Of a DNA stretch of 64,000 nucleotides, positions 26,305 through 35,404 are shown piece after piece. Location of the stretch: assembly GCA_965212015.1 (NCBI GenBank), contig OZ243037.1:1248001-1312000 (forward strand), written 5' to 3'. How positions within the stretch are numbered: position 1 is the first letter of the stretch; the number at the start of each line of letters is the position of its first letter. The notes under the pieces are model-generated. The model saw only the letters and a list, made by a program, of their open reading frames with translations. It made no database searches and was not told the DNA's origin. The DNA comes from Cenarchaeum sp. GTDB taxonomy: Archaea > Thermoproteota > Nitrososphaeria > Nitrososphaerales > Nitrosopumilaceae. The position numbers were made by a program, and so were the translations under genes.

Positions 26305-29300
26305 CTAGCCTGCAAAATCCGAAAGCAGCGCCTGATCCCCCCGGCTCTTTCCAAAGACCAGATCAATCTCGTCGGAGAGGGCGTGAATCCTTCCGCGCTG
26401 ATACCTGCTGACGTTGTATTTTTCAACCAGGCGTTTTGCAAGCTTGAGGTATTTTTCTACGGACGGTCTTGTGATGGTCTGGATGAGGTCGTGCTTGCAG
26501 GCGCAGCGCTGGGTCAGCGGGGCCCTCCTGTAGCTCCGGCCGCACAGGGTGCACCGCAGGTTCTGCCTTGCATACGACCTGAGGTTTCCCATTATGTCCG
26601 GCACCAGGTGCGTGGAGATGACGTTTGAGACCGTCTCTGCGGTGTCTACCACGTCGATCATGTCTGCGTTTCTTATCTGCAGATCAAACTTGTCAAGCAT
26701 CGAGTCAAGCGTAGAGTACGCGCTGCGCGACTTTGAGGTGGTCAGCGTGGATGTCTGGTGCGTAAAATGATAGTTGCTGAACTGCTCCCTTGTGTCCAGG
26801 CGGGATTTTATTATCTCGACGCAGTCAATGGCGGAGGCCTTGTGCCGCAAAAGCGTGGACTCGTAGAACTCTAGGGGGAATGACTTTGTGACCTCGAGGT
26901 TGTGCGCCTGCGGCTGCGATTCGTGCGGCAGTACCAGCGGCTGAATCAAGAGTGGCGCGTCCATCAGTCCCCCGATCTTGTCGGAGAGAAACTGCCGCGA
27001 AAAGTTGAGCAGTGCGTCCATCAGCAGTATGATCGAGTCTGCGTCCCCGTCTGCGTCCCTGCGCTTGGCAGAATGCCAGTTGGGCGTGGCAAAGCACACG
27101 TGGGTGTTGGTATAACCCACAACCCTTGCGACTATTCCGACGGACGTGTGGGGGGCGAGCCCCACTACCAGGTGGCCCAGCAGCTCGTCAGTGTCCGAAA
27201 CGTTGTAAAATTTTGGCCTGCCGTAAAATTTGTCGAGTTCGGCATCGACGTATTTGCAAATGTTCACCAGATACCTTGCCGACTCGAACGGGATTATAAT
27301 GTCCTGCATTTTGAGCTCGACTGTCTGATCCGGGTCGGTCAGCTCCCTTCCTTGCGCGTCTACAAGATAGCCTAGCTCCCTGAGCCGCTTGGGACTAGTC
27401 CCGATCCATGACGGCTTGAAATGCGTCAGGGGGGAGTTTGTTGCGTCAAATCTCACCGTGCCGTCCTTAAAGACGGTAAGGCCCCTGCTCTGCCTGATCA
27501 GCCCCTTTTCTAGCGGTTCGGCTATCTTGTCCTGGTTGATGAGATCCCTTACGCCCTTGAGCGGCTCTTGCGCCCTGATGCCGGTCTTTTCCTGGGCGTA
27601 CAGCAGCTTCTTTTTTAGCGGAAAATTTTTGTAGGAATGCGAGATGCACTGCCTCTTGCATCTGTCGCAGTACTGTTCGCCTAGTACGGATCTGCACGCA
27701 GGGCACGTATACGCAAGCACGGTCTTTGAGCCGCAGTTCTGGCACCTGATCCCGATGGAAAGCTCGCCGCACTGCTTGCATGTCCGGTCCGATATGTTGG
27801 TGTAAAAGTCCGGCTGTGACGACGCCCTGAGCAGGTCGCGGGTCATTCCGCCCTTGTTGGCAACTGGAAACAGGCAGTGAGTCGGGGGCTTCATCTGCCT
27901 TGGCGCCGCCTTTTCTGGCCTGCCAATTCTCACGCCAATTGAGGTGGAGAACTTGTTGCGTATTGTAATTCCCGAGTATTTTGAGATCAGCTGGGGGACC
28001 GGGACGGATCTGTCAATCTCTGGCTTTTTCTTGAACAGGAGGCGGGAAAATATCCGGGCCTCGTCCCCGTCGAGCAAAATTCCAGAGTCATCAACCCTGT
28101 GCGGCACTGCCAGCCTCTCCAGTATTCTCTTGCAGGAGGGCCGATACCTTATCGAGTTCTCGCCTGTCTCCGAGGGCGCCAGAATCTCTGCAAGCTCGTC
28201 GTGGGAGATTTTATCCCAGTAAAACAGATACTTTGGATGCAGCGGGATTCCGTGATCCTGCGCCAGTCTCACGGACTCGTCTAGCGACGGAATCCTCCCA
28301 AGAAACTCCGAGGCGCCGCCGGCATCCCCGGGGAGTTTTTTCCTTAGATCCTCAATCCAAAACTCCTCGACGTATCCGGAGGGCACCAAATGCGCATTGT
28401 TCTCAAGAAAGTCGCCAAACGAGATTAGAATGTCGCCAAGGTGAAGGATTTTTTCCACCTGGCCCCTGACTTTGATGCCGTGCTCGGCGTCGCGGATTTT
28501 GACTACGTCCCCGTTTTTGAGCCGCACCGTGGGAGTCTCGATAGAGTCAACGAATGCCACGGTGGCGCCCTTGCCGGGAATGTCTATTTTTATCTGTGTT
28601 CCCACGGCGATGGTGTGATCCAAAATCTCTGCGACGGCCGGATGAAACCCTACTGAGGCAAAGCCGGTGTTGCACGACCTGCCGTACCGCAGCCTAAAGC
28701 CCCCAAGCTTGTTTGGGGCAGACAAAACTGAGCGGCCGGCGATCACCTCGCGCATCCTTTTTGCCGCCGCATCCTCCTGGCTTTCGCCGGTCTGGACTGC
28801 GCCTTTGAGCTGGCCCAGCCAGTCCCAGCCGTCAAGCTTGTACAGCTCGATTCTCTTTACAAGTTTTTTTGATCTGCCAATCAGCCCGTCGTTGAGGACC
28901 CGGAGGGCGCCGCCCCTTACCCGGTCGGTCTTTATCCTGGCCATGCCCTTGTGGTTTACCACCTCGAAGGGATCGGTATCCACGCCGTCAATCTCCACGG
29001 GAAGGTTCGAGATCACCCGGATTATGTCCTCGTCTAAGACATGGAACTGAAAGTTTCCGGCCTCGCGTTCGTATATTCGCAGCTCCTCTACAAACCTGCC
29101 CGTCTCGTCGTCAAACGAGTTTGCCTGGTAGCTTGACAGTCCGACTGCCTTTCTTACGTGATCCGCAATCAGTATTGTAACTGCGGATTCCGTTCCGCCC
29201 GCCGAGCGCATGGGTCCGGCAATCGAGACTGAAAGATAGTCGCTGCCGTCCTTGTTTTTCCTTATTCTTATCTCCGAGATTCCCTGCAGCGGGGCAATCG

Positions 29301-29676
29301 TGACGCCCTCTGTGACTATTGCCAGCCCCACCCTTACTGCGAGATCAAGCCTCTGCTCCAGCGTAGAGTTGTCTGCCATGTACTTGCCCAGTGCGATCTC
29401 GCCGGACAGGGTCAGCGCAGAGATCTCCTTGCCGTTGGTCTTTAGCAGCTTGCGCAGCGGTGCGGCGATGTCGATGTCGTGCATCTTGGAGACGCGGTCG
29501 GCCAGGTCAAATGCTATTTTGGGCTCTATCATGCCAGACGAGTCGACAAGCGTGGATTTTGCATCTGCGGCCTTTTCAAATATAGAGTGAGATTCCAGTG
29601 ACAGGCCGGAGTAATAGTCGCGGTACGAGTCCGGCATGTCAATGCCTTCAATGCGGGTTATGGCGTTGTCTGACAT
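26305..29676 (-). CDS. polC: DNA polymerase II (PolD) large subunit DP2
   Basis: AGPMRSAGGT, GGFRLRYGR, GRPEKA, KDGTVRFD, LAPHTS, catalytic KRRDADGDAD, Zn fingers; no intein seen. Confidence 0.97.
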   Translation of the reverse strand: MSDNAITRIEGIDMPDSYRDYYSGLSLESHSIFEKAADAKSTLVDSSGMIEPKIAFDLADRVSKMHDIDIAAPLRKLLKTNGKEISALTLSGEIALGKYMADNSTLEQRLDLAVRVGLAIVTEGVTIAPLQGISEIRIRKNKDGSDYLSVSIAGPMRSAGGTESAVTILIADHVRKAVGLSSYQANSFDDETGRFVEELRIYEREAGNFQFHVLDEDIIRVISNLPVEIDGVDTDPFEVVNHKGMARIKTDRVRGGALRVLNDGLIGRSKKLVKRIELYKLDGWDWLGQLKGAVQTGESQEDAAAKRMREVIAGRSVLSAPNKLGGFRLRYGRSCNTGFASVGFHPAVAEILDHTIAVGTQIKIDIPGKGATVAFVDSIETPTVRLKNGDVVKIRDAEHGIKVRGQVEKILHLGDILISFGDFLENNAHLVPSGYVEEFWIEDLRKKLPGDAGGASEFLGRIPSLDESVRLAQDHGIPLHPKYLFYWDKISHDELAEILAPSETGENSIRYRPSCKRILERLAVPHRVDDSGILLDGDEARIFSRLLFKKKPEIDRSVPVPQLISKYSGITIRNKFSTSIGVRIGRPEKAAPRQMKPPTHCLFPVANKGGMTRDLLRASSQPDFYTNISDRTCKQCGELSIGIRCQNCGSKTVLAYTCPACRSVLGEQYCDRCKRQCISHSYKNFPLKKKLLYAQEKTGIRAQEPLKGVRDLINQDKIAEPLEKGLIRQSRGLTVFKDGTVRFDATNSPLTHFKPSWIGTSPKRLRELGYLVDAQGRELTDPDQTVELKMQDIIIPFESARYLVNICKYVDAELDKFYGRPKFYNVSDTDELLGHLVVGLAPHTSVGIVARVVGYTNTHVCFATPNWHSAKRRDADGDADSIILLMDALLNFSRQFLSDKIGGLMDAPLLIQPLVLPHESQPQAHNLEVTKSFPLEFYESTLLRHKASAIDCVEIIKSRLDTREQFSNYHFTHQTSTLTTSKSRSAYSTLDSMLDKFDLQIRNADMIDVVDTAETVSNVISTHLVPDIMGNLRSYARQNLRCTLCGRSYRRAPLTQRCACKHDLIQTITRPSVEKYLKLAKRLVEKYNVSRYQRGRIHALSDEIDLVFGKSRGDQALLSDFAG

Positions 29677-29682
29677 TGCGGA

Positions 29683-30447
29683 TCACTTTCTGGTGCCGTG
29701 GATCGCTTTTACTATTTCGGCGAGCTTTGCAAGTTTCTGATCCCCCTCCAAGAGAGTCCCAATCACGATGGCGTCCGCCCCGGCATCAGATATCTGTCTG
29801 GCAGTCTCAGCATCCCTGATTCCGCCGCCGACAATCAGGAATCCGTCAAAGACGCCTCGGATCGTCTTGATCATCTCGGGCCTGACGCTGGATTTGGCGC
29901 CAGAGCCGGCCTCCAGATAAACAAACCGCATACCCAAAAACTGCGCCGCCAGCGCATATGCTGCGGCAATCTTTGGCTTGTCAAAGGGAATTCCCCGGGC
30001 GGAGCCCACAAACCATGCCGATGTTCCCTCGCCGATGACCAGGTATGCCGTGGGCAGGGGCTCTAGGCCGAATTTCAGTACGCTTGGCGCGCCCAGCGCC
30101 TGCGCCTGCGTGATAAAATACGGGTTTTCAGAGTTCATCAGGGAGCTAAAAAGGATCGCGTCGGCCTCAGGAACGACGCCAGTCACGTTTCCGGGGAAAA
30201 GAATTACCGGAATCTTTACGGATTTTTTGATGTTTCCAACTACTGCGGACATTTCCATCTGGTCGGTGGCCGACGATCCCCCGACTAGTATTGCAGAGGC
30301 GCCCATCTCCTCTACCCGCCTTGCGAGGCCCTCCGAGCTTGCCATATCGGACACCTCAGAGTCGATAAGGACAAAGAGCAGGGTCTTTTTTCTTTTTAAT
30401 TCGGACTTTAGATGGTTCTCGGTGTCGTTTTTAGGCATAGCACACAT
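29683..30447 (-). CDS. geranylgeranylglyceryl phosphate synthase
   Basis: VLIDS, ILVGGS, ILFPG, YLEAGSGA, VGGGIR. Confidence 0.93.
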   Translation of the reverse strand: MCAMPKNDTENHLKSELKRKKTLLFVLIDSEVSDMASSEGLARRVEEMGASAILVGGSSATDQMEMSAVVGNIKKSVKIPVILFPGNVTGVVPEADAILFSSLMNSENPYFITQAQALGAPSVLKFGLEPLPTAYLVIGEGTSAWFVGSARGIPFDKPKIAAAYALAAQFLGMRFVYLEAGSGAKSSVRPEMIKTIRGVFDGFLIVGGGIRDAETARQISDAGADAIVIGTLLEGDQKLAKLAEIVKAIHGTRK

Positions 30448-30503
30448 TCGGCGGAGGCTCTTTAAAGTTTAAGTGGAGTACCGTTATACTGTTTTGTATA
30501 GCT

Positions 30504-30866
30504 ATGGCGGAGCATAAAGGATCTAATTTCAATAATATTATACAAAAAATTATAGAAAAATCGTTGTTTACAGAGAGACAAATTGAAATTATTTTAGATC
30601 GTAGAAACATTTCAGAGGCGGATTTTAGGATAAGCAGGGGGGCATATTACAGGCAAGTAGGCCAATCTAGGAACAAACTGGCCAGATTCTACTATACCGT
30701 GGCCCTTTTGCGGGGTTTGGGCGTACTTTTGCCCGATGATATTGATGTGATATCAAATCTGGCAGAAAAGATTTCCGTGATAAAAGACAGTGATGTTTTG
30801 GCCGGCCAGGAAGACGAGATTGTAGACGTCATTGACAGGGTGGTTCGGCAGGCATGCAATATGTGA
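30504..30866 (+). CDS. hypothetical protein, probable HTH DNA-binding
   Basis: FTERQIEII...ISRGAYYRQ resembles a Tfx/sigma-like HTH; AT-rich gene. Confidence 0.65.
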   Translation: MAEHKGSNFNNIIQKIIEKSLFTERQIEIILDRRNISEADFRISRGAYYRQVGQSRNKLARFYYTVALLRGLGVLLPDDIDVISNLAEKISVIKDSDVLAGQEDEIVDVIDRVVRQACNM

Positions 30867-30988
30867 TTTGTGATGATCTTGTTGCGTGCAGGCAGTCTCC
30901 AAGGCGTGATTATTGGTGATTCAAATGTTAGTCTAAATGTGAAATTATATTGTTCTATCACAATAAATCACGGTGATTTCATGTATGT

Positions 30989-31567
30989 GTGATGTTGGTA
31001 GAGATTCCCGATATGGATGTAATTTTAAGCTGGGTTGTGGCGTTTCTGGTGGGAGTAATCGGCCTGTCCCTATACTACAAGCTAAAACCACGCCTGAGCA
31101 TCGGACGAAAAGGTGATGAGGGGGCGAGTCTGGAACGCCTAGAGTACTATGAAAAACAGCTGATTGATATGAAAATACGCCTAGATGCACTCGATATGGT
31201 GTCCGAGCCGGAACCGGCAGGCAGTACCGGGAATACCGCACAGGCACCAGCCAAAAACACTGCAAGGCCGGAGTTTGAGGCGGAGGCTGCCAGACCAGAG
31301 CGCAGACGGCGCGAAAGCACGCCTAGTTATGATCACGCAAACATCACAGACTATGTGTTACGCCTAATCACAGACAAGCCCATGACATCACGTGACATAC
31401 AAGTCACAGTAGGCAGAACGAGGGAGCACATCTCCAGACTAATGAAAAAGCTTTTTGAAGACGGCCTTGTAGAAAGAAACACCGCCGCAAAACCATACAC
31501 ATACTCCATCACAGAAAAGGGCAGGACGGGCCTGGGTATAATCAAGCCGGTGCCGGTTGCCGTATGA
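30989..31567 (+). CDS. membrane-anchored winged-helix DNA-binding protein
   Basis: N-terminal TM (ILSWVVAFLVGVIGLSLYY), coiled coil, linker, then MarR-like wHTH (TSRDIQ..VGRTREHISRLMKKL...GLVER...PYTYSIT.KG). Confidence 0.8.
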   Translation: MMLVEIPDMDVILSWVVAFLVGVIGLSLYYKLKPRLSIGRKGDEGASLERLEYYEKQLIDMKIRLDALDMVSEPEPAGSTGNTAQAPAKNTARPEFEAEAARPERRRRESTPSYDHANITDYVLRLITDKPMTSRDIQVTVGRTREHISRLMKKLFEDGLVERNTAAKPYTYSITEKGRTGLGIIKPVPVAV

Positions 31568-31680
31568 TTGGGATCGGGCAGGGGGCTTTCTTTCAAAGTG
31601 TAGATTTTTTATGATAATTTATAATTCTTTTATTTTGATAAATTACATATATTAATATATTACAATATTATAATGCCGGC

Positions 31681-31842
31681 ATGGAAGAGGCGCCTCAGGA
31701 AATATTAGTCAAGATATCATCCACGGGCACAATCTCGCTTCCAAAACTATACCGAAAATACATGGATCTGCAAAAGGGCGACTATGTCAGGGTGGTTTTG
31801 AACAGTGACGGCCTGTCAGTCAAAAAGGCGACGATCACTTAG
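31681..31842 (+). CDS. AbrB/MazE/SpoVT-family DNA-binding protein (53 aa, not in the ORF track)
   Basis: MEEAPQEILVKISSTGTISLPKLYRKYMDLQKGDYVRVVLNSDGLSVKKATIT*, with the AbrB pattern KIxxxGxIxLPKxxR...L..GD.V. Confidence 0.85.
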   Translation: MEEAPQEILVKISSTGTISLPKLYRKYMDLQKGDYVRVVLNSDGLSVKKATIT

Positions 31843-32234
31843 CGTATTGTGGGCTGTTTTTGGGCCAGTTTAATGATCTGATAGGTCCATTCCCGGCCTG
31901 TTTTTGAGCGCTGCACCCTGCCTTTTTGGGCAAATCTGGCCAGATATGTGGATATGATGCTCAGTTTGATCGGCTCGTTGTATTCGTCCTCGTATTTCTC
32001 CAGGACGCCGGTGGATGTGAACCGGCCTACCGGAAACTGTTTGCCGACGACATGCCAGATTTTGGAGCCCACGGAATCCAGATTTACGGCCTTTTGGCCC
32101 TCCTCGATATTCATCAGATCCATCATTTCAAAGATTTTGAGGACTTTTTCCCTTGTGACATTGCCCTCCAGTTTGATGTCATATTTGGCCCCCTCAGAGT
32201 CCTCCATGTCTATCCGGATGCGCTTCTTGGTCAT
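31839..32234 (-). CDS. hypothetical winged-helix protein divergent from cdc6
   Basis: C-terminal FTS...Y...ISTYLARF..KG.V.R...GREWTY wHTH-like pattern; start at ATG 32234. Confidence 0.75.
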   Translation of the reverse strand: MTKKRIRIDMEDSEGAKYDIKLEGNVTREKVLKIFEMMDLMNIEEGQKAVNLDSVGSKIWHVVGKQFPVGRFTSTGVLEKYEDEYNEPIKLSIISTYLARFAQKGRVQRSKTGREWTYQIIKLAQKQPTIR

Positions 32235-32249
32235 TTGGATCAGTCTAAG

Positions 32250-32700
32250 AATTGCCTTAACAATTGAACAGATCCACGAAACTTTGTTAACCAAATAATT
32301 TGTTAATATTGACTGCCTGAGCCACGCCTGACGGGGTTTTCCCCGTTAACATATGCCCTAAAATCATGGCGGTTTTGGGCCGTTTTTCACGCCTAGAGTG
32401 GAAAAAGGGGGGTCGGATGCCATTCTTAACACTGTTAATCACAGATTTCACGCCTAGAGTGGAAAAAGGGGGGTCAAAAAGGGGTTTTTCCACCACACCT
32501 TAACTCTGGGTTAACTCCCTGTTAACTGCAACGACCCACACACCAGTATTTCCACTCTTTGTTTTTTTGATTTTTTTTACAGAGATTCTCTCACATATCA
32601 CTATCAAACCATCATCATACAACCATACATTCCAATCCTATAGGAAATGAAGGTGTGTGGGTACAGAACTGATCGGTGTCAATGATCTTGATCCTTGGTG
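32250..32700. other. probable chromosomal replication origin (oriC)
   Basis: Intergenic region upstream of cdc6 with direct ORBs, an inverted ORB-like box at 32533-32560 (reverse complement AGAGTGGAAATACTGGTGTGTGGGTC), a T-rich tract at 32558-32578, and a further box TAGGAAATGAAGGTGTGTGGG at 32641-32661. Confidence 0.8.
32385..32475 (+). repeat. two identical 30-bp direct repeats (ORB-like) TTTCACGCCTAGAGTGGAAAAAGGGGGGTC
   Basis: Copies at 32385-32414 and 32446-32475; the GTGGAAA core plus G-string is typical of archaeal origin recognition boxes. Confidence 0.85.
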
Positions 32701-32758
32701 TGAAAAATGTCTATGGGATCCATTGAAGTGTCAAGCCAAGATCAGAGATGATCCCGAT

Positions 32759-33976
32759 ATGAGTACCACACTGCAAGACCCGGTTGAAAAGATACTTGAT
32801 GCGGCCATAGCCGGCGACTCGCTGATCAAAAACCGGGACATTCTACACTTTACCTTTATACCGGCCGTCATACACCACAGGGACTCTGAGCAGGAAAGGG
32901 TGACACAGTCGCTGCTACCCATCCTAAAACAGTCCCGCCCCTCCAACCTGCTGGTGTACGGCAAGCCCGGGACCGGCAAGACCCTGGTGGTGAAAAAAAT
33001 TCTCTCCAAAATACAGCAGAGGGTGGAAAAGTCAAACTTTCCAATCAGGCTAATCTATGCCAACTCCAAGGAGGAGACTACCATGTACGGCCTGCTGGTG
33101 AGTTTCGGCAGGCAGCTGGGACTCTCCGAAAAGGAGCTGCCGTCAACCGGCCTTGCAATATCTGCAGTCTTTAAGAAAATCCTTGCCGTAATCAATGGCG
33201 GAAAAATCAATGCGATATTTGTCATCGACGAGATTGATCACCTTGCGCACCTGAGCTCCAAATCACACAACGACATTCTCTATACGCTGACTCGCGCCAA
33301 CGAGAGAATCGAGAGCGGGGGATCCTTTACCATAGTGGGCATATCCAACGATCTCACATTCAAGGAGCGGCTTGATCCGAGGGTCATCAGTACCCTGGGG
33401 GAGGAGGAGATTGTCTTTACAAACTATACCGTCGAGCAGATCAAAAAAATCCTTCAAAACAGGATTGGCGAGGCGTTTGCCCCGGACTCTGTCACCGAAC
33501 CGGCCCTGAACCTGTGTGCTGCCATGGCCGGCGGGGAGCACGGTGACGCCAGAAGGGCCATAGATCTCCTCCGGGTGGCAGGCGAGATTGCAGAAAGGGA
33601 GCAGGCAGGCCAAATCACCGAGGCCCACATCAGAGACGCGTCACAAAAAATAGAGGAGAACAAAGAGATTACGGCCCTGAGATCCTATCCGCTTCACGAA
33701 AAACTAGTCATCCTGTCCATAATAAAGGCGGCCGACTCCTCGACCGGGCAGATTTACGCGGCATACAAGGACCTGACAAAGACGCTCCGCCAAAAGGAGC
33801 TCACCCAGAGGAGGATTACCCAGATGCTAAGCGAGATAGAAATGTCCGGAATCATCACGGGCCGCATAATACACCAGGGAATCCACGGAAGGACCAAAAA
33901 ATTCAAGCTTACAGTCTCTGCCGAAACGGTAAAGGCCACGTTCAAAAACGATTTGGTTCTAGAGGATATCCTCTAG
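32759..33976 (+). CDS. cdc6: Orc1/Cdc6 replication initiator
   Basis: YGKPGTGKT Walker A, VIDEID Walker B, LDPRVIS, GDARRAIDLLR, C-terminal winged helix. Confidence 0.96.
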   Translation: MSTTLQDPVEKILDAAIAGDSLIKNRDILHFTFIPAVIHHRDSEQERVTQSLLPILKQSRPSNLLVYGKPGTGKTLVVKKILSKIQQRVEKSNFPIRLIYANSKEETTMYGLLVSFGRQLGLSEKELPSTGLAISAVFKKILAVINGGKINAIFVIDEIDHLAHLSSKSHNDILYTLTRANERIESGGSFTIVGISNDLTFKERLDPRVISTLGEEEIVFTNYTVEQIKKILQNRIGEAFAPDSVTEPALNLCAAMAGGEHGDARRAIDLLRVAGEIAEREQAGQITEAHIRDASQKIEENKEITALRSYPLHEKLVILSIIKAADSSTGQIYAAYKDLTKTLRQKELTQRRITQMLSEIEMSGIITGRIIHQGIHGRTKKFKLTVSAETVKATFKNDLVLEDIL

Positions 33977-35404
33977 TCAGTCCTTAAAGTCTTTTAAAAA
34001 GACCTTGAGGCTGTTCAGGTTTACTATTACGGCGAATCCCGGGGTGGGAACCTGCCCCACGCTCACCTGAAACGGCGTCTGTCTCTGCCAGGCGCCAGAG
34101 TTGACTAGCAGTATGTTGCGGTACATGTCCAGCTCTGTAATGTGCACGTGGCCCACGTGGAAAATGTCGGGGATTTCGTCTATTACCATCACGTCCTCCA
34201 GTTCCGGGGCTATCGGGGTCTGGCTTCCAAAGATGGGGCTCAGGTGCCTTGCCTTTAGCAGGTGCCGCATCACGTCCACCGGCTTGGCGTAGCTCAGGCC
34301 GGGCGTGGTCTTTACAATGTCGTCTATGCTTTGCCCGTGAAACACGGTCACCTTTACGCCGTTCAGGGAGATCCGCGCGGGATTGCCGATCATGACAAAG
34401 TTTTCGCGCTCCCACAGGCCGGGGCAGTGTTTCTTGGGAATCGCCGGCTGCGGCAGGGCCCTTCTTCCCGGATCGTGGTTTCCCGGAATGACAAAGACCC
34501 GGATGTGGTCGGGTATTCCCAGCAGGATGTCGTGCGCCTTTTGGAGCTGCTCCTCTATGGTCTGGCAGACCAGCTCCCTGTCCTGATCCTTGTAAATTCC
34601 CACCCCGTCGACTAGGTCGCCGCCTATTATGATGAATGCAATCTTTCTTGCTATCGGATCTGGGCTGGACAGCCAGGAGACAAACGCCGCAAACTCTTCT
34701 TCCATAAAGTATTTGCTGCCTATGTGCAGATCCGACAAAAACACGGCGTGGGCCTCAGACTCGGATCTGTTGGGCCGGTGATCCGGAATGTCCGGAACGA
34801 TCAGCTCCTTTGTTACAAAGCCGCCGTTTTTCCCCACCGCAATCTTTGCCATGACGAACTGGTCGTTGAGCAGCGAGTCGGCGACCTTGCGCAGATCCCT
34901 GTCAAAGACGGCCACCTCGACTGAGCCTGACGCATCGTCCAGGGTCAGCCTCACAACGTCCTTGCCCGAGTTTTTTTCATAAATCAGCCCCCAAATGTAG
35001 ATGTCCTTGTTGAACTTTGTGCCCTTGATGGACGCTATGGATTTTATCATTTTTGATTCCGGGCGGTCGGCCATGATGCCCTTTAATTTTGAGAACCTGC
35101 TTGCAAACAGCGCGTTATACCCGTCTACCCCCTCGGCACTGGTAATCCCGCCGGTGGGATCCGAGAGCACCTCGTAATCCGCCCGGAGCTCAGCCTTGCT
35201 GATCCCGAGAAACTCCTCCAAATCCGTCTGGCCGATCAGATAGACCTTTTGCCTTGCCTTCTCCCTGACTATCTCTTTGATTATTCTTCCCAGCTGCGAC
35301 GCATCGACGCCCTCTAGAATCTTTAGCGCGTCTGGATGAATCTGAAACCCCCTGCTCAGTGCATAGTTCAAGGCCAGCGATATTTCCCTGTTCAATGTCA
35401 GCAA
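33977..35404 (-). CDS. polB: DNA polymerase II (PolD) small subunit DP1
   Basis: OB fold, SDLHIGS, GDLVDG, PGNHD, HG, RHLSP, GHVH calcineurin-like motifs. Confidence 0.95.
   Translation of the reverse strand: MLTLNREISLALNYALSRGFQIHPDALKILEGVDASQLGRIIKEIVREKARQKVYLIGQTDLEEFLGISKAELRADYEVLSDPTGGITSAEGVDGYNALFASRFSKLKGIMADRPESKMIKSIASIKGTKFNKDIYIWGLIYEKNSGKDVVRLTLDDASGSVEVAVFDRDLRKVADSLLNDQFVMAKIAVGKNGGFVTKELIVPDIPDHRPNRSESEAHAVFLSDLHIGSKYFMEEEFAAFVSWLSSPDPIARKIAFIIIGGDLVDGVGIYKDQDRELVCQTIEEQLQKAHDILLGIPDHIRVFVIPGNHDPGRRALPQPAIPKKHCPGLWERENFVMIGNPARISLNGVKVTVFHGQSIDDIVKTTPGLSYAKPVDVMRHLLKARHLSPIFGSQTPIAPELEDVMVIDEIPDIFHVGHVHITELDMYRNILLVNSGAWQRQTPFQVSVGQVPTPGFAVIVNLNSLKVFLKDFKD

Follow-up and report, generated by a model that had tools for sequence, protein, structure and literature searches.

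Archaeal replication origins (oriC) in which origin recognition box (ORB) repeats lie beside an orc1/cdc6 gene have been mapped in Sulfolobus, Pyrococcus and haloarchaea. In bacteria, parS lies within the parB/spo0J gene, and ToxR and CadC are membrane-anchored one-component regulators. The locus described here, from Cenarchaeum sp. (assembly GCA_965212015.1, contig OZ243037.1), shares something with each of these. The window analysed is a stretch of 64,000 bp (positions 1,248,001-1,312,000) of a genome that consists of a single contig of 1,764,220 bp with 51% G+C, and coordinates refer to the window unless stated otherwise. The genes at the locus are arranged in the order GGGPS, a helix-turn-helix gene (HTH1), a gene for a putative transmembrane winged helix-turn-helix protein (TM-wHTH), an AbrB gene, a second winged helix-turn-helix gene (wHTH2), the predicted oriC and Cdc6. 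We favour, with somewhat less than even confidence, an interpretation where the 2 kb from the HTH gene to oriC form an origin-adjacent block of putative protein-binding DNA words, lying partly within coding sequence, that would serve locally encoded regulators.

The origin itself is of known kind, in that its ORBs are repeated, two of them in inverted orientation enclose an A/T-rich stretch and cdc6 is the next gene, and the origin copies of one of the words, ACGCCT, belong to this class. A single origin has been mapped in Nitrosopumilus maritimus according to an extract of a review (PMC4010727), and ORB repeats before the cdc gene of that species are mentioned in an extract of another paper (PMC5797428). 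Two ORB types, a free-standing copy of the ORB arm word before the ORBs, dense GTTAA(C) boxes and an intragenic copy of the arm word at a distance of 1.2 kb are found here but not in the extracts of the published accounts. For chromosome segregation, SegAB is the sole archaeal system in the portion of a 2024 review at hand (PMC7617429), where its action is called not understood. Our locus resembles parS and SegAB centromeres only in the way it may work, as short sites are clustered near an origin, some of them inside the gene of a local DNA-binding protein. The words are just 5-9 bases long, compared to the 16-bp palindrome of parS-type sites, and one of the proteins is membrane-anchored. The region 26305-35404 is filled entirely by the genes for PolD-L, GGGPS, HTH1, TM-wHTH, AbrB, wHTH2, Cdc6 and PolD-S, so that, with all genes identified, the cluster holds no ParA/SegA-type Walker ATPase gene, and none of the four putative DNA-binding proteins matches a ParB or SegB family in Pfam or NCBIfam at E up to 1. 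Membership in ParABS or SegAB fails because both the ATPase partner and the ParB or SegB domain are missing. A third comparison is with TrmBL1, which, in the part of the source available (PMC4706686), reads the Thermococcales glycolytic motif TATCAC-N5-GTGATA, a case of a winged helix-turn-helix (wHTH) that recognises inverted ATCAC-type half-sites up- or downstream of the TATA box and represses or activates. TM-wHTH differs from it by a sub-threshold TrmB match, the lack of a sugar-binding domain and the transmembrane (TM) anchor, and the sites differ in that there are about 17 of them, many in coding sequence and many unpaired. In the parts of the open full-text literature covered, no description of this gene cluster or of its words in ammonia-oxidising archaea was found; an order-wide four-gene DNA-binding module at oriC, a sensor-less signal-anchored wHTH, and coding sequence that doubles as a dense array of sites thus appear to be new.

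The position of the TM-wHTH gene beside oriC, which an earlier note on this DNA had pointed out, is fixed in the family and beyond it. TM-wHTH was matched in 39 of the 41 genomes searched, among them all 24 family members. For the analysis of synteny, 5 kb on either side of the match were sampled in 20 relatives, giving 21 loci together with the window. HTH1 is located immediately upstream of TM-wHTH in all 20 relatives, wHTH2 follows in 19 and the AbrB gene was found in 18, as was Cdc6, with one of the two exceptions due to a record that ends just past wHTH2 while in the other relative that side of the locus has been lost. In 18/20 relatives the TM-wHTH gene is about 1.3 kb or less from the ORBs. 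At least five other families of the order (L023, L024, L027, L028, L030) have the same gene order, and all 80 metagenome loci of sufficient length carry subsets of the same gene set. Among 5.8 billion proteins the nearest relative of TM-wHTH is 59% identical (at most 54% in a metagenome scan), and relatives are labelled in their sources as MarR family, winged-helix DNA-binding or hypothetical, and nothing else.

The evidence that carries our interpretation is an excess of conservation at synonymous sites in HTH1 and TM-wHTH. Codon sharing was determined for each conserved amino-acid column and scaled to columns with that amino acid in genes nearby, taken from the same set of genomes, yielding a constraint z. 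Six neighbouring genes used as controls have a mean z of -0.12 to 0.16, with 1-4% of the columns above z 3, compared to a mean of 1.98 and 29% of the columns for HTH1 (Mann-Whitney P = 2.7e-12) and of 1.37 and 18% for TM-wHTH (P = 8.7e-7). The effect was replicated, more weakly, in a less diverse set of metagenome loci, mostly AT-rich, which had been deduplicated at >=90% identity in the TM-wHTH gene to leave 46 loci (HTH1 0.93, TM-wHTH 0.51, controls about 0). Constraint at the nucleotide level within the TM-wHTH gene, as the earlier note had supposed, is hence present, but the dominant word inside the gene is ATCAC/GTGAT rather than ACGCCT. The constrained codons repeatedly spell ATCAC or GTGAT, and 18 copies in 1200 bp (2.5 expected) make this the top cluster of these words in the genome, the next having 11. 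In each of the 21 loci the density from the HTH1 start to the TM-wHTH stop is 10.2-18.8 per kb versus 1.1-3.4 per kb in the flanks, a 6.5-fold enrichment across all loci. The most overrepresented hexamer in this interval is ATCACA (169 observed, 12.6 expected), with ACGCCT ranking 25th of 2046 (36 observed, 12 expected). On the coding strand, the words have the orientation GTGAT in HTH1 and ATCAC in the 3' half of TM-wHTH.

Many of these words are held at fixed positions. HTH1 has three on the plus strand (30737-30794), GTGAT at 30747, 30777 and 30790, which are found in 18, 19 and 18 of the 21 loci, the first of them within a 19-bp inverted repeat (30737-30755). The valine is encoded by GTG in 18-19 of 19 cases, with z values above 10, although these and all other single-column values come from a run in which Cdc6 and wHTH2 were mis-threaded in the control pool. 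A further GTGAT, at 30828, occurs in 17/21 loci and is absent from the genome of the window. The intergenic region with the TM-wHTH core promoter (30863-30993) holds nine ATCAC/GTGAT words as well as a minus-strand ACGCCT (30902-30907). Here, two ATCAC words 10 bp apart bracket an A/T box, a palindrome is found at 30966-30980 and GTGAT occurs at the start codon, where GTGATG opens the gene in 16/21 loci. A 15-mer that spans the two promoter words, ATCACRATAAATCAC, has exactly one match per genome in 12 of 41 family genomes and is located just upstream of the TM-wHTH gene in all six for which gene coordinates were at hand. The arrangement of this promoter is, we infer, that of an autoregulated operator. 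In the wHTH-coding part, a plus-strand ATCAC block at 31364-31409 includes the palindrome TCACGTGA; the word at 31367 is present in 20/21 loci and those at 31387, 31392 and 31403 in 10-13 (13 at 31387, 12 at 31403, which is degenerate in the genome of the window). Its codons ATC, ACA, TCA and CGT are fixed in 19-20 of 20-21 loci (z 4.7-10, from the run mentioned) and in 46/46 metagenome loci. Antisense genes were considered as a cause of the constraint and rejected, as the frames are short, with boundaries that vary, and some loci have none in the wHTH part.

The second component of the block is the origin, for which we compared the wHTH2-Cdc6 intergenic region of the window with that of 18 relatives (19 regions). 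All 18 share one plan, consisting of a CCAYGCCTR box, two direct ORBs, many GTTAA(C) boxes and an inverted pair of ORBs of a second type that encloses an A/T-rich stretch. The pre-ORB box (32309-32331, plus strand) carries the ACGCCT copy at 32324, and in most of the 19 regions it is a conserved box that ends in CCAYGCCTR. The direct ORBs are exact 30-bp repeats at 32385-32414 and 32446-32475 (plus strand, period 61 bp), with ACGCCTAGA in the 5' arm, which confirms that two ACGCCT copies form the 5' part of ORB repeats. In most relatives this arm reads AYGCCTRGA and is followed by the ORB core and a G-run. Because the origin plan is shared by relatives, the copies at 32324, 32389 and 32450 are regarded as part of conserved origin elements. 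The second-type ORBs, at 32535-32558 (minus strand) and 32642-32661 (plus strand), flank a stretch (32561-32640) with 70% A+T that is likely to be the unwinding element. Repeated ORBs beside orc1/cdc6 and an A/T-rich stretch between inverted ORBs are thus both found at this predicted origin. GTTAA(C) boxes are interspersed with the ORBs (32257-32526), and the 13 GTTAA copies in 400 bp compare to 0.27 expected, the next best cluster in the genome having four; 4 of the 63 GTTAAC copies of the genome lie in the origin region. Across the 19 loci with both wHTH2 and Cdc6, the window included, GTTAA density is 20.7 per kb in the origin versus 1.5 per kb elsewhere, and, judged by this distribution, GTTAA(C) is a third conserved word class at the locus. 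The adjacent orc1/cdc6 gene (32657-33976, plus strand) matches Pfam Cdc6_lid (9.7e-25) and Cdc6_C (1.8e-19). The first codon of its open reading frame (ORF), GTG at 32657, falls within the second-type ORB (32642-32661), while relatives align only from residue 7-41 on; the start codon is likely the ATG at 32759.

ACGCCT had drawn attention to the locus in the first place, as the earlier note counted nine copies in about 1.55 kb where fewer than one would be expected. This count holds, as do all positions and strands: the copies start at 30902 (minus strand) and at 31090, 31135, 31177, 31319, 31360, 32324, 32389 and 32450 (plus strand), and the genome-wide frequency (831 copies on both strands, 0.471 per kb) predicts 0.73 copies in 1554 bp. 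Nine is the genome maximum for a span of this length, the next independent cluster having six. The claim of a density above background applies to this cluster, but not to the window as a whole, which has 37 copies versus 29.6 in shuffled sequences, a number reached by 12 of 100 shuffles. Of the 38 copies of the longer word ACGCCTAG in the genome, five are in this locus, as are three of the four copies of ACGCCTAGAG. A G-rich run comes after the sole ACGCCTAGAG outside (genome position 1496500, window coordinate 248500), which gives it a superficial likeness to an ORB. For seven of the 38 ACGCCTAG words, at genome positions 107740-110642 and 738097-746740, the surrounding sequence is itself repeated over about 28 bases and evidently belongs to repeats or paralogous genes.

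We consider the cluster notable not on statistical grounds alone, but because the word is the ORB's own and the copies match those in the origin. Matches between coding and origin copies extend beyond the hexamer to 9-11 bases, with 31088-31097 sharing 10 bases with the pre-ORB box and 31135-31145 sharing 11 with the ORB. The five copies within the TM-wHTH gene (31090-31365, plus strand) are distributed over two frames, as had been noted: four of the five Arg-Leu dipeptides of the protein are encoded as A-CGC-CTR, and the copy at 31319 reads ACG-CCT, Thr-Pro. Among 1882 Arg-Leu dipeptides in 824 long ORFs of this genome the probability of A-CGC-CTN is 0.017, so that four out of five corresponds to P = 4e-7. 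Codon-pair usage of the genome cannot explain the coding ACGCCT copies.

An ACGCCT array inside the gene is, on the other hand, not a feature of the family. Counted column by column on a codon alignment, the hexamer is retained in 6 of the 20 relatives at 31177, in two each at 31135 and 31319, and in none at 31090 and 31360. Conservation at synonymous positions in orthologues, the test that the earlier note had set itself beforehand, is thus seen at 31177, while the other four coding copies fail it. In the metagenome loci, 31177 reads ACGCCT in 47/77 cases (30/46 after deduplication) and its arginine codon is CGC in 33 of the 46 deduplicated loci. CGC is the rarest arginine codon in the control genes of these loci, with 1.7% of 1538 codons, and none of 56 conserved arginine columns in the controls has CGC in >=50% of the loci. 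At 31177, CGC is paired with CTA or CTG (CTR) and CGT with TTA, which fits a word that is kept or lost as a whole. In complete AT-rich genomes, the segment from the gene to the origin contains 2 of the 9 (G016) and 2 of the 18 (G006) ACGCCTRGA sites of the genome; in three other complete genomes the numbers are 2/7, 1/22 and 0/13. The GC-rich relative L046, from the same genus, has four plus-strand ACGCCT copies in its TM-wHTH gene, at other positions. In light of these comparisons, the 31177 copy is old and constrained and the remaining coding copies are particular to this lineage. The site at 31177 is not an ORB because it lacks the ORB core and the G-run. The ACGCCT cluster of this genome is a composite of copies in origin elements, one conserved coding copy and a lineage-specific remainder. 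On the minus strand of HTH1, ACGCCT is found at the position homologous to 30719 in 6/20 relatives (L032, L035, L042, L046, L047, L048) and at that homologous to 30850 in 4/20 (L046, L047, L049, L050), while the window has neither; the degenerate AYGCCTR occurs at these positions in 11/21 and 9/21 loci, and the adjoining glycine and leucine codons are constrained.

We first weigh an explanation that would dispense with any DNA-level function of the coding ACGCCT copies and that we regard as unlikely. The 31177 site would be a pair of rare codons that slows the ribosome during emergence of the signal-anchor, for membrane targeting, and the other copies would have drifted into existence in a GC-richer genome, to be noticed because scanning many windows will yield such clusters. 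Recognition by the signal recognition particle is aided by non-optimal codons located 35-40 codons downstream of a signal-anchor, and the site is located about 33-35 codons past the end of the TM helix (residue 29), with CGC being the rarest arginine codon of AT-rich relatives, at the 1.7% given above. Drift would also agree with the lack of conservation of the copies besides 31177 and with the rank of the cluster among those of all hexamers (401st of 2080). However, the equally rare CGG (2.8%) is never used at the site (0/46); the coupling of CGC with CTR and of CGT with TTA points to a word rather than a single rare codon, and the word is kept in the genome of the window even though CGC is common there (20.7% of arginine codons). 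Nor does drift account for A-CGC-CT in four of five Arg-Leu dipeptides (P = 4e-7) or for matches to the origin copies over 9-11 bases.

The other explanations depend on the nature of the proteins. TM-wHTH (30989-31567, plus strand, 192 aa) had been described as a TM segment followed by a coiled coil and a wHTH domain, and Pfam, hydropathy and an AlphaFold2 (AF2) model bear this out, with a TM helix at residues 11-29, a long helix at 43-71, a disordered linker at 74-113 and the wHTH at 116-181. The Pfam match is to HTH_27 (1.6e-7, 31.9 bits with a cut-off of 22.2). In the AF2 model, based on a 21-sequence alignment, pLDDT is above 90 for the helices (9-40 and 43-71) and for the wHTH (116-181, of the pattern H-H-H-E-E), while 74-113 is disordered. 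Residues 11-29 have a mean Kyte-Doolittle hydropathy of 2.38 and are directly followed by a stretch rich in Lys/Arg, which suggests that the protein is anchored N-out, C-in and that its wHTH is cytoplasmic. The part ahead of the TM helix, only about 10 residues, leaves no room for an external sensor domain. In ToxR and CadC, too, one TM helix fixes the DNA-binding domain to the membrane, but TM-wHTH would have the reverse topology, with an N-terminal anchor and about 10 residues outside, lacks a sensor and has a MarR-like rather than an OmpR-like wHTH. Foldseek finds MarR-type wHTH structures, with ST1710, BldR and ZitR on top and the centromere-binding AspA of plasmid pNOB8 at rank 43; the shared wHTH core superposes with a root mean square deviation of 1.2-2.1 A over 64-68 residues on these matches. 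Unlike in MarR-type regulators, a TM helix, one long helix and a disordered linker of 40 residues stand in place of the dimerisation helices; these, and the TrmB effector domain, are absent from the predicted model. The MarR Pfam model scores below its cut-off, and a sequence comparison to solved chains in the PDB gave negligible similarity (best E = 0.068).

For the remaining members of what the earlier note took to be four DNA-binding genes the picture is mixed. In addition to TM-wHTH, the AbrB/SpoVT-type gene (31681-31842, plus strand, 53 aa) scores above its Pfam cut-off (PF04014, 27.6 bits versus 24.7; TIGR01439 is just under, 27.5 versus 28.3), whereas HTH1 and wHTH2 have sub-threshold matches only. 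HTH1 (30504-30866, plus strand) encodes an all-alpha protein of 120 aa that is specific to Nitrososphaerota and belongs to no curated family; no Pfam or NCBIfam model matches above cut-off, its sequence clusters are unnamed and confined to Nitrososphaerota, with a Sigma70_r4 lead at only 0.83, and its AF2 model (pLDDT 60) is too weak for a structure search. The putative wHTH protein wHTH2 (31839-32294, minus strand, likely starting at ATG 32234) is transcribed away from oriC and has weak matches to Penicillinase_R (E 0.031) and CopY (0.0017); its clusters, too, are unnamed and found in Nitrososphaerota only, with a Penicillinase_R lead in 15% of one cluster.

The earlier note had proposed (TC)ACGCCTA sites as the target of TM-wHTH or of a neighbouring protein; binding to these sites, in the TM-wHTH gene as well as in the ORBs, would tether the origin to the membrane in the manner of a centromere-like segregation device, or else gate initiation. 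A membrane anchor and a wHTH are indeed present, the latter placed on the cytoplasmic side by the Lys/Arg-rich stretch; the gene keeps within about 1.3 kb of the ORBs in 18/20 relatives, gene and origin have the word in common, their copies in this genome agreeing over 9-11 bases, one coding copy has been retained in spite of codon usage, and L046 has four plus-strand copies in the gene as well, although at other positions. We nevertheless consider the proposal quite doubtful, as only a single coding copy is conserved, the promoter of the gene is bracketed by ATCAC and not by ACGCCT, the cluster provides no partner ATPase and the protein matches neither the ParB nor the SegB family. Tethering of the origin to the membrane as such is possible, to judge from the predicted protein: with an N-terminal anchor and a cytoplasmic wHTH, TM-wHTH would keep whatever DNA it binds at the membrane. 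If this holds, it probably rests on ATCAC rather than on ACGCCT. The anchored wHTH might then coat the ATCAC array, and perhaps ACGCCTRGA, and together with its three partners hold origin-proximal DNA at the membrane, so positioning or segregating the chromosome or licensing initiation without a ParA motor, a scenario to which we also assign a rather low probability.

Recognition of ACGCCTRGA by Orc1/Cdc6 would be a further possibility. In that case the coding sites would be partial ORBs, and the recognition zone would extend 1.3 kb to the left, loading extra initiator or coupling expression of the cluster to initiation. The word is the ORB 5' arm in nearly all relatives, all plus-strand copies are oriented like the ORBs and cdc6 is adjacent. 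In archaeal Orc1-ORB complexes, structural work has shown that most contacts are made by the GTGGAAA core and the G-run, and it is these that the coding copies lack, GTGGAAA occurring in the region only at 32398, 32459, 32487 and 32549 and never after a coding ACGCCT copy. The pre-ORB box, moreover, conserves the word alone without an ORB core, which suggests a separate reader, and we find partial ORBs very unlikely. Least probable of all, in our view, is a constraint at the RNA level, where GUGAU in the HTH1 message and AUCAC in that of TM-wHTH would bind an RNA-binding protein or small RNA or pair within a bicistronic transcript: the two sets of words are complementary, on the same strand and in consecutive genes, and the constraint is limited to these two genes, but local folding with RNAalifold returns an energy of 0 for three of the four constrained blocks and just a 4-bp stem at -0.99 (z -4.6 versus column shuffles) for the ATCAC block, no Rfam family matches 30300-32800 at E up to 1, the complementarity ends at 5-6 bases, and the words are not confined to transcribed DNA but also occur in the promoter, on either side of the A/T box and in both orientations. 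Local RNA structure, known RNA families and conserved antisense ORFs do not explain the constraint.

We thus return to a block of putative protein-binding words beside the origin. Three of the ACGCCT copies would belong to the origin proper, as the 5' arm of two ORBs and as a separate box upstream, and 31177, read as ACGCCTAGA, would be an old extra copy of the ORB-arm word that has been kept against codon usage, whereas the other coding and intergenic copies would have arisen in this lineage. The main conserved feature would be the approximately 17 ATCAC/GTGAT words spread over HTH1 and TM-wHTH, about ten of them at fixed positions, held at synonymous sites and bracketing the core promoter and start codon of TM-wHTH. 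These words may be bound by one or more of the four local DNA-binding proteins, which would repress their own promoters and assemble into a nucleoprotein complex beside the origin; the many further sites inside the two genes suggest such a larger complex. TM-wHTH is our guess for the protein that reads ATCAC, by analogy, because a TrmB-family wHTH reads TATCAC half-sites and TM-wHTH has a sub-threshold match to TrmB. ACGCCTRGA is more likely to be read by whatever reads the ORB 5' arm, be it Cdc6 or an accessory factor, as the word also stands alone in the pre-ORB box.

Several observations weigh against this interpretation and keep our confidence in it short of even. The coding ACGCCT copies other than 31177, four out of five, are not conserved (0-2 of 20 relatives); outside 31177, the TM-wHTH genes of relatives have about 0.9 copies per kb versus about 0.5 in the flanks (computed by hand), which is not significant; and the best ACGCCT cluster ranks only 401st of 2080 among the best clusters of all hexamers in this genome, those ranked above being mostly repeat arrays. 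The site at 31177 comes without the ORB core and G-run, and covariation of the intragenic ACGCCTRGA with the ORB arms was not seen, as the gene mostly has CTA and the ORBs have CTG. ATCAC is a 5-mer core with little information in its flanks. Its assignment to TM-wHTH is only a guess because the TrmB Pfam match is below the cut-off (23.3 versus 25.6) and the fold matches are generic, of MarR type. Finally, a near-invariant block of 44 bp in HTH1, A/T-rich and on the plus strand (30556-30599, codon columns 18-30), holds neither ATCAC nor ACGCCT, and yet has the same codons in 16-21 of the 21 genomes (GC 0.33-0.66); one of the three blocks without a conserved fold, it might act as a promoter, either internal or antisense. 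Of all hexamer clusters in the genome, the strongest are found near window coordinates -504300 and -598700 and resemble repeat arrays.

HTH1 has a promoter of its own (30461-30503, plus strand), near-invariant in the nucleotide alignment of the 21 loci, that consists of an A/T box at 30461-30473 and a palindrome at 30483-30503 which abuts the ATG. The palindrome has the form TATACA-N-TGTATA in nearly all 21 loci and looks like an operator on a leaderless gene. Its word differs from ATCAC, which implies a second regulator. The A/T box may also serve the divergent GGGPS gene (29683-30447, minus strand; Pfam PcrB 5.9e-53).

Contigs from related strains were compared to the window over 30400-32700, where 22 positions are variable. 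Contigs of the runs X1, X2, X3 and X4 differ at 1, 4, 20 and 19 of these, respectively, with no substitution in an ACGCCT or ATCAC word; as merely 0.5-0.8 would be expected, the comparison has no power with respect to the words. X3 and X4, from two runs of a second study, represent a near-identical strain with insertions of 1 base and 5 bases at 32570 and 32607. These fall in the A/T-rich stretch of the origin, and the substitutions are mostly clustered at 32569-32663.

Chromosome segregation and the timing of initiation are poorly understood in archaea, and for the ammonia oxidisers this locus offers testable candidates: four uncharacterised putative DNA-binding proteins beside oriC, one of which is membrane-anchored, and three or four conserved words to be matched with them, namely ATCAC, ACGCCTRGA, GTTAAC and the palindrome of the HTH promoter. 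If the words were merely autoregulatory operators, they would still map a small regulatory module at the origin. The locus is also a clear case where an overlapping code at the DNA level constrains synonymous sites, which matters for annotation and for studies of evolutionary rates.

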